From a virus (lineage: Duplodnaviria > Heunggongvirae > Uroviricota > Caudoviricetes), in IMG/VR virus record IMGVR_UViG_2654588181_000003: a stretch of DNA of 14,671 nucleotides; one strand, 5' to 3'. Within the stretch, counting starts at the first letter, position 1; each line of letters opens with the position of its first letter. A program made the translations under genes and the position numbers. Shown piece after piece: positions 10,734-11,033 of the stretch. The notes beneath the pieces are model-generated. The model had not been told where the DNA came from, made no database searches, and saw nothing but the letters and a program-made list of their open reading frames with translations.

Positions 10734-11033
10734 TTAGGCATCAATAAGTGCTGCTTCAACTTCGTACGCCGTCTTTTCATCAGTCATTCCGTGTCGATGG
10801 ATGACATGGATAACTTCAAGTCCTGCTAACCTTATTTCTCTAATTTGCTTTAGCTTGTTGCTCAGTAACTCGTCATCATCAGTCGCTGCCACTTCACCGC
10901 GCATATGGGCAAATACGCGGTTACCTTTGCCTTTCCCTACATAGAAGGTGCTTCCGTCCCTCGGATCAATCAATCGGTATACATACCAGCCAAGGTGTTC
11001 AATTACTCCAGAAGGAAACTCAGTAATATCCAT
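10734..11033 (-). CDS. Small GIY-YIG nuclease-superfamily protein, 99 aa
   Basis: N-terminal [29 protein letters not shown] fits the GIY-YIG motif arrangement (Y..Y, then YVGKG, then R..H). No obvious SD; divergent from the methyltransferase gene across a ~400-bp AT-rich spacer. Confidence 0.55.

Follow-up and report, generated by a model that had tools for sequence, protein, structure and literature searches.

The small open reading frame (ORF) at positions 10734–11033, on the minus strand of the 14,671-nt stretch of DNA analysed here (hereafter the window), is with a probability of about 0.9 a decayed 5′ fragment of the prophage-borne anti-phage defence gene PD-T4-3/CMoRE, cut by a deletion within the prophage. 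As the preliminary description correctly laid out, this 99-aa ORF sits between a remnant of phage head genes (capsid and cement, to the left) and a complete EcoRII-type restriction–modification (R-M) pair (methyltransferase and EcoRII, to the right). The feature is real but ordinary: its parent is an already characterized anti-phage nuclease gene of a known family, the remnant itself is most likely dead, and it is the recurrent TA breakpoints in the parent gene that stand out.

The 99-aa ORF and its parent gene

Read from ATG to TAA, the ORF translates into 99 aa that match the Pfam family PF22945 (LEM-3_GIY-YIG) with E 1.9e-13 and a score of 51.1 bits, the cut-off being 27; no other Pfam family, and hence no Vsr family, matched at E up to 0.01, and a search of NCBIfam gave no match. 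The ORF and its GIY-YIG similarity are thus as first described, but the ‘orphan small protein’ is a gene fragment instead. Nor is it essentially a bare GIY-YIG domain: the Pfam match spans only positions 26–95 of a 151-position profile, the stop codon was made by a junction (see below), and the subfamily placement leads from the LEM-3-like profile to PD-T4-3, whose PADLOC model (PDLC04031) is covered only over positions 1–98 of 256 (E 6.5e-55), short of the full length by which members of that family are recognized. In phrog_5356, similarly, the ORF covers positions 1–98 of 255.

At the DNA level the ORF is 100% identical to codons 1–99 of a 257-aa Escherichia coli gene, and represents the 5′ 38% of its 774 nt. 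Such a gene (774 nt, 257 aa) is annotated at the same place in E. coli SA186, where its product matches the PADLOC PD-T4-3 model over positions 1–255 of 256 (E 8.8e-139), phrog_5356 over its full length, and two entries of the Protein Data Bank over residues 1–257 (9U75, E 5.5e-170; 9U7U, E 1.7e-149). Both entries are crystal structures of CMoRE, the new name of PD-T4-3 (Liu et al., Nat Commun 2026, PMC12923530; further entries 9U7Z and 9U8D), the system having originally been described by Vassallo et al. 2022 (PMC9519451). When the full-length CMoRE protein was searched against the window by tblastn, residues 1–99 alone were recovered, and no C-terminal part is present on the contig. Full length is the rule elsewhere: the nuclease gene is carried by 838 of 5,426 complete E. 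coli genomes and is full length in 823 of the 838, as it is in all 89 IMG/VR prophage copies, and across phyla the length norm among 6,486 relatives (E up to 1e-10) is 243–260 aa.

[quoted passage not shown] The enzyme is a tetramer, and tetramerization via helices 1, 2, 4 and 5 and strand 3, with helix 4 forming part of the dimer interface, is likewise needed for defence (PMC12923530). DNA carrying 5hmC or 5ghmC is cut, DNA with C or 5mC is neither bound nor cut, and protection extends to phages T2, T4 and T6 (PMC12923530). Defence by a Capnocytophaga homologue also depends on modification (PMC12366544), and another paper shows that PD-T4-3 is active in the E. coli host to which it is native.

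What the ORF keeps of this enzyme is identical to residues 1–99 of the SA186 homologue and nearly identical to the crystallized O157:H7 protein, and it shares with the parent the native upstream region and the location among the cargo of a lambdoid prophage; in contrast to the parent, it retains only 99 of 257 residues and is a pseudogene fragment rather than a working member of the family. By its translation, the GIYxY-YIG tyrosines Y17, Y19 and Y31 are all kept, together with R39 and E93 (each an invariant column in the family alignments, numbered as in PMC12923530), and so is the acidic lid DDDE52–55. In an AF2 model of the full-length protein (mean pLDDT 81), strands are predicted at residues 15–22 and 28–35, followed by a helix at 39–44, the lid loop (residues 45–55), a helix at 56–69, a strand at 75–83 and a helix at 86–99, and then by a low-confidence linker (105–111), helix 4 (114–127) and a strand-rich C-terminal domain at approximately 138–253. 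Helix 3 being the one at 86–99, the fragment stops exactly where this helix ends. Everything from Y100 on is absent, i.e. the Y100–N105 motif (Y100-P-G-x-T-N105), helix 4 with the 5hmC contact Y127, and the C-terminal sensor domain, and the lost part is conserved: residues invariant in the family follow right after the break (Y100, G102, N105, G109, G111, G116, H119, Y127 and others) and occur throughout the C-terminal half. Across the GIY-YIG superfamily, the catalytic Glu is followed some 12 residues later by a conserved Asn (N88 in UvrC, N90 in I-TevI); the family-invariant Asn of CMoRE, N105, falls past the truncation, and the ORF lacks this hallmark.

With the UvrC GIY-YIG domain and the I-TevI-type homing endonucleases, CMoRE shares its catalytic fold and, in the active site, the Tyr/Arg/Glu residues, and UvrC is its closest structural neighbour (PMC12923530). 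It differs from them in that the match to PF01541, the classic GIY-YIG profile, is reached by the full-length protein only and is not significant (E 0.071), and in that the parent has another C-terminal domain and modified phage DNA as its substrate; no repair-operon or intron context surrounds the locus in the window. The GIY-YIG motif of the ORF and a weak match of the full-length protein to PHROG 314 (‘homing endonuclease’, E 0.0028) might suggest a stand-alone miniature GIY-YIG nuclease or what is left of a homing endonuclease comparable to I-TevI or the Seg proteins, but this is very improbable: the strong full-length matches are to PD-T4-3 and phrog_5356, no DNA-binding domain of the NUMOD or IENR type was found in the full-length parent and no intron or intein context around it, the parent's C-terminal domain is a modification sensor (PMC12923530), and the length of 99 aa was set by the junction and not by a native stop. 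The earlier proposal of an independent nuclease or homing remnant was therefore right in spirit, as this is the remnant of an independent nuclease, but the homing endonuclease gives way to PD-T4-3.

Judged from the published structure and function, the fragment would be unable to recognize modified phage DNA or to act as a defence, since the 5hmC-sensing C-terminal domain, helix 4 and the Y100–N105 motif are all missing; it is probably still transcribed and expressed, as its native upstream region is intact. One caveat on this loss of function is that residues 1–99 hold most of the catalytic core (strands 1–3 and helices 1–3), and the mutated active-site residues named in the CMoRE paper all lie within them, such that some residual activity or binding is conceivable. 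The main bearing of this result is on annotation: a RefSeq-style label (for example ‘LEM-3-like GIY-YIG domain-containing protein’) or a PD-T4-3 match from defence-finding software would count the locus as a nuclease or a defence system, whereas it is most likely a dead 5′ stub, and the strain should not be scored as protected from hmC phages by this locus. A full-length copy might still be present elsewhere in the genome.

The deletion junction and the prophage cargo island

Alignment with SA186 places the deletion junction at 10733–10736. Homology ends between 10734 and 10735, inside the Tyr100 codon, with 100% DNA identity over 10735–11450 and unrelated sequence left of 10735; similarly, a megablast search of 10600–11450 against complete E. 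coli genomes returned 100% identity in 241 of them, from 10735 rightward only. At the junction, the phage part ends in ...CTCGAT and runs directly into TAGGCATC... from the nuclease gene. SA186 and the window are identical up to ...GATGCCTA, after which SA186 continues with C-CCT-GGG (Tyr-Pro-Gly) and the window with phage DNA, and it is this phage DNA that turns TAC into TAA and so provides the stop codon of the 99-aa ORF. A 2-nt TA is common to both parents, which puts the crossover within 10735–10736 (gene nt 297–299), and the intact phage parent of the junction was found in a related locus, L004 (...CTCGATTAATGATG...).

The phage partner in the deletion is a lambdoid head remnant of 1.8 kb (8931–10734, plus strand), comprising a 5′-truncated capsid gene (Phage_capsid_4, 8948–10255) and a head cement gene (10297–10665), both identified by Pfam, and approximately 70 nt beyond. 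This remnant is also truncated on its other side, where similarity to the intact phage starts only at approximately 8931, and a second deletion junction therefore bounds it. A 5′-truncated tyrosine-integrase ORF (8266–9048, minus strand) overlaps the start of the truncated capsid ORF (plus strand).

Farther left, the window holds other features. A two-gene cassette on the minus strand (6900–7970), encoding two proteins, one of 272 aa with hydrophobic segments at its N-terminus and one of 82 aa, lies between this integrase fragment and a P4-type integrase (5394–6704); neither Pfam nor PADLOC gave a match for the cassette, which could be cargo. The P4-type integrase in turn adjoins an element on the minus strand (1776–5111) made up of a large serine recombinase (518 aa, with Resolvase and Recombinase domains) followed by two paralogous 298-aa proteins with ParB_N/RepB domains, for which PADLOC found no match save a weak, partial one for one of the genes.

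It is also very unlikely that assembly produced a chimera here and that the organism has an intact gene. The window is a whole draft contig (FNIS01000054.1, 14,671 bp, from assembly GCA_900103855.1), and three other contigs end at the same point of the gene (nt 297–299), as might be expected of such an artefact; yet more than one sample has this contig on record, analogous junctions occur in the complete genome UMNF18 and in several independent assemblies, and the 2 nt shared at the junction are too few for a de Bruijn misjoin.

A deletion within the prophage accounts for the arrangement as follows. In both SA186 and UMNF18, ssrA is followed by EcoRII, the methyltransferase gene and CMoRE, beyond which a lambdoid prophage continues with its tail-fibre and late genes. 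This identifies the block as cargo of a prophage integrated at ssrA, located at its att-proximal end. The ancestral state, as in SA186 and many others, would thus be a lambdoid prophage at ssrA with CMoRE, methyltransferase and EcoRII beside the att site. A deletion would then have joined the TA downstream of the cement gene to the TA at gene nt 298–299, removing codons 100–257 and the intervening late genes, creating an immediate stop codon and leaving the R-M pair intact. Deletion into the methyltransferase gene would probably be lethal as long as EcoRII persists, and this may be why the decay stops here; the locus would then illustrate how a prophage cargo island decays up to, and not into, an addictive R-M module.

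The spacer and the EcoRII-type module

The ORF and the methyltransferase gene do diverge across an AT-rich spacer, as previously noted: it covers 11034–11439, i.e. 406 bp at 33–37% GC if the methyltransferase start is taken as 11440, the RefSeq annotation of an identical gene. The description of this spacer as one shared promoter-like region did not survive comparison, since its two parts are merely juxtaposed. The first (11034–11247, minus strand) is the nuclease gene's own upstream, or promoter, unit, which accompanies the gene in every context, including those where the methyltransferase is absent; for example, loci L004 and L011 are similar to the window up to 11247 (96.5%) and have genes for an HTH protein and an M78 peptidase as their upstream neighbours. 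The second (11248–11439, plus strand) goes with the methyltransferase side, as seen in prophage loci and on plasmids, where the spacer from approximately 11357 on is also present with plasmid-borne EcoRII-type methyltransferase genes. The 406-bp spacer thus joins two separate modules. A scan of it for sigma-70 promoters gave nothing above the shuffled expectation.

The R-M pair is complete. It consists of an EcoRII/Dcm-type C5 cytosine methyltransferase of 477 aa (11440–12873, plus strand; Pfam, NCBIfam and RefSeq) and, convergent with it, a full-length EcoRII restriction endonuclease of 404 aa (12908–14122, minus strand; Pfam, and PDB 1NA6 at E 5.7e-243). An alternative in-frame ATG at 11398 would give a methyltransferase of 491 aa, 14 residues longer, and the RefSeq start at 11440 is preceded by GGAGG. 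No vsr-sized gene lies between or beside the two genes, which bears out the remark that Vsr is missing here. Beyond EcoRII, sequence comparison reveals a degenerate copy of the ssrA 3′ end (the att core) at 14350–14372, reading TGGTGGGCTGGCGGAGTTTGAA against the canonical TGGTGGAGCTGGCGGGAGTTGAA, which forms the right end of a 3.64-kb module (10735–14372) common to many genomes. Right of 14372 the window departs from every other context, suggesting that islands are arranged in tandem at ssrA. Scans of the window for tRNA, tmRNA and Rfam families gave no matches.

The more speculative proposal of the preliminary description, that the small GIY-YIG protein serves the cytosine methyltransferase as a nicking or repair partner in the role of Vsr, is extremely improbable. 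The two genes are divergent across one AT-rich spacer, and the nuclease gene is contiguous with an EcoRII-type methyltransferase gene in 241 of the 838 complete E. coli genomes that carry it; in the other 597 (approximately 71%), however, it is not. Among 89 IMG/VR prophage contigs, nine of them too short to tell, the methyltransferase lies upstream in 31 of the 80 informative loci and is absent from 49, all of which lose similarity approximately 150–250 nt upstream of the nuclease ATG. In O157:H7 Sakai the nuclease gene occupies prophage Sp1, between a transcription regulator and pinE. This full-length CMoRE gene (ECs_0285; locus L102, 5001–6386), annotated as hypothetical, is convergent with the pinE invertase gene of an invertible tail-fibre segment, a cargo context other than the R-M-linked one.

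Other species tell the same story. At least 595 stretches in a one-genome-per-species collection encode relatives. The best 80 loci come from Enterobacterales, Acinetobacter, Planctomycetota, Acidobacteriota, Chloroflexota, Actinomycetota and others, and at none of them did phmmer (E up to 10) or a search for C5-methyltransferase motifs reveal such a methyltransferase or EcoRII within 6 kb of the gene. No conserved neighbour family emerged at these 80 loci either, the commonest being Phage_integrase with 8 of the 150 nearest neighbours. Conversely, approximately 640 plasmids carry an 80–90% identical EcoRII-type methyltransferase gene, similar from approximately 80 nt upstream of its start, and no nuclease gene, the plasmid records with a nuclease gene beside the methyltransferase numbering only three. 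The adjacency is therefore one arrangement of prophage cargo and no trait of the family, and the wide occurrence of the gene away from any methyltransferase is precisely what the preliminary description itself had named as speaking against a partnership. The composite nature of the spacer argues in the same direction, as do the published properties of the full-length protein, a single-gene defence that does not bind 5mC DNA (PMC12923530), of which only a truncated copy is present here. The likeness to Vsr is confined to the genomic idea of placing the gene for a small nuclease next to that for a CCWGG cytosine methyltransferase: Vsr has another fold and overlaps dcm in an operon, whereas the genes in the window are divergent, belong to separable modules that co-occur only within one prophage lineage, and derive on the nuclease side from an enzyme that ignores 5mC DNA. 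What links nuclease and methyltransferase is co-residence in a defence island, where their targets may be complementary, EcoRII acting on unmodified CCWGG DNA and CMoRE on hmC phages that evade EcoRII.

Recurrent truncation points in the CMoRE gene

The window is not alone in carrying this truncation. The exact 99-aa product arises from at least four unrelated junctions, all at ...GATGCCTA| and each with a different prophage sequence, namely the cement-gene flank in the window, a tail fibre in L002, the tail-U region in L004 (which lacks the R-M pair) and an N6/N4-methyltransferase gene in L007–L010. Protein matches revealed a second cluster of truncations after residue 69, which at the DNA level corresponds to five independent junctions after gene nt 207 (...AAGGTTA|; window position 10827), with partners in a lysozyme gene, a replication-like gene, a head–tail gene, a tail-fibre gene and one other gene. 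Each nt 207 junction is found where the gene is linked to the R-M pair, and the geometry of all of them is that of nested prophage deletions. In total, truncation points were found in the related loci L002, L004, L007–L010, L101 and L185–L189, and they coincide with the ends of the helices predicted by AF2 at residues 56–69 and 86–99. Just before the breakpoint, the intact partner has TA in four of four cases at nt 207 and two of two at nt 299, such that the six crossovers checked all fall in a shared TA.

The recurrence of the same 99-aa product in several genomes could hint at tolerance or selection, and the truncated protein might be maintained for a role, either by poisoning the tetramers of a second, full-length CMoRE or as a mild nuclease. 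Its upstream unit is intact, it stops exactly at the end of helix 3, it keeps V92 and L96, which are needed for oligomerization, and it has arisen in at least four genomic contexts. We nevertheless consider such a role unlikely. Truncated alleles are rare (at most 15 of the 838 complete genomes; none of the 89 IMG/VR prophage copies is cut at this point, and one contig is cut at nt 207), the tails fused at nt 207 are random, out-of-frame sequence, and the recurrence is better explained by a hot spot at the level of DNA, because all six checked crossovers lie in a shared TA.

We tentatively suggest, as a possibility that is itself somewhat doubtful, that one-sided deletions recur in the CMoRE gene at two hot spots precise to the nucleotide, after nt 207 and at nt 297–299, with crossovers in TA. 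If so, these would point either to a site-specific source of DNA 3′ ends within a defence gene or to recombination with a 2-bp crossover, and the process would repeatedly inactivate an anti-T-even defence while sparing the addictive EcoRII module. Possible candidates include a break linked to an IS or of the IS-excision-enhancer (IEE) type, template switching upon arrest of replication, and an unrecognized recombinase or nuclease. Should the TA breakpoints reflect a specific mechanism, the gene would be a natural and tractable case in which to study how a defence gene is lost in a site-directed way.

Several other causes were considered and set aside. Cleavage by EcoRII is at best a partial explanation: the sole CCWGG in the gene (nt 301–305) is 1–3 nt from the nt 297–299 point, but the nt 207 point and the phage partner's breakpoint are without CCWGG, and L004 is truncated in the absence of the R-M pair. 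Self-cutting by CMoRE does not suit either, as its published CN11/N9G geometry appears to misfit the flanks of the nt 299 point. The single-stranded fold of gene nt 150–350 has a z-score of 0.0, giving no sign of a hairpin or cruciform at the hot spots. A quasi-site for a Pin/Cin-type invertase might be entertained, as pinE adjoins the gene in Sakai Sp1. The hot-spot sites, however, do not appear to resemble the hix/gix/cix consensus sequences, the core of which is not known to be TA. The TA at nt 297–299 may be an artefact of having searched for the exact 99-aa product, since only junctions that create a stop codon can be picked up in this way; no such selection applied at nt 207, where TA is nevertheless present in all four cases.

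The nearest likeness may be to one-sided deletions of the IEE type or others mediated by microhomology (Kusumoto 2011, as reviewed in bioRxiv 10.1101/2023.06.07.543989; PMC9943667): both form nested series with one fixed and one variable far end, both have 2–3 nt of terminal microhomology and leave no IS behind, and in other CMoRE alleles IS1 and IS2 ends abut the same point. A difference is that no IS was found at the CMoRE points in the E. coli alleles of complete genomes, where chimeric gene+IS2 and gene+IS1 queries gave none at nt 297. The IS-abutting alleles are divergent ones from metagenome and Logan contigs (L183, 408–785; L184, 160–543), in which an IS1 end (GGTAATGAC...) or an IS2 end (TGGATTTGCC...) directly follows gene nt 297 (GCC|). 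In the flank, ACTTATTGAT appears to agree over 10 nt with the inner part of the IS1 inverted repeat.
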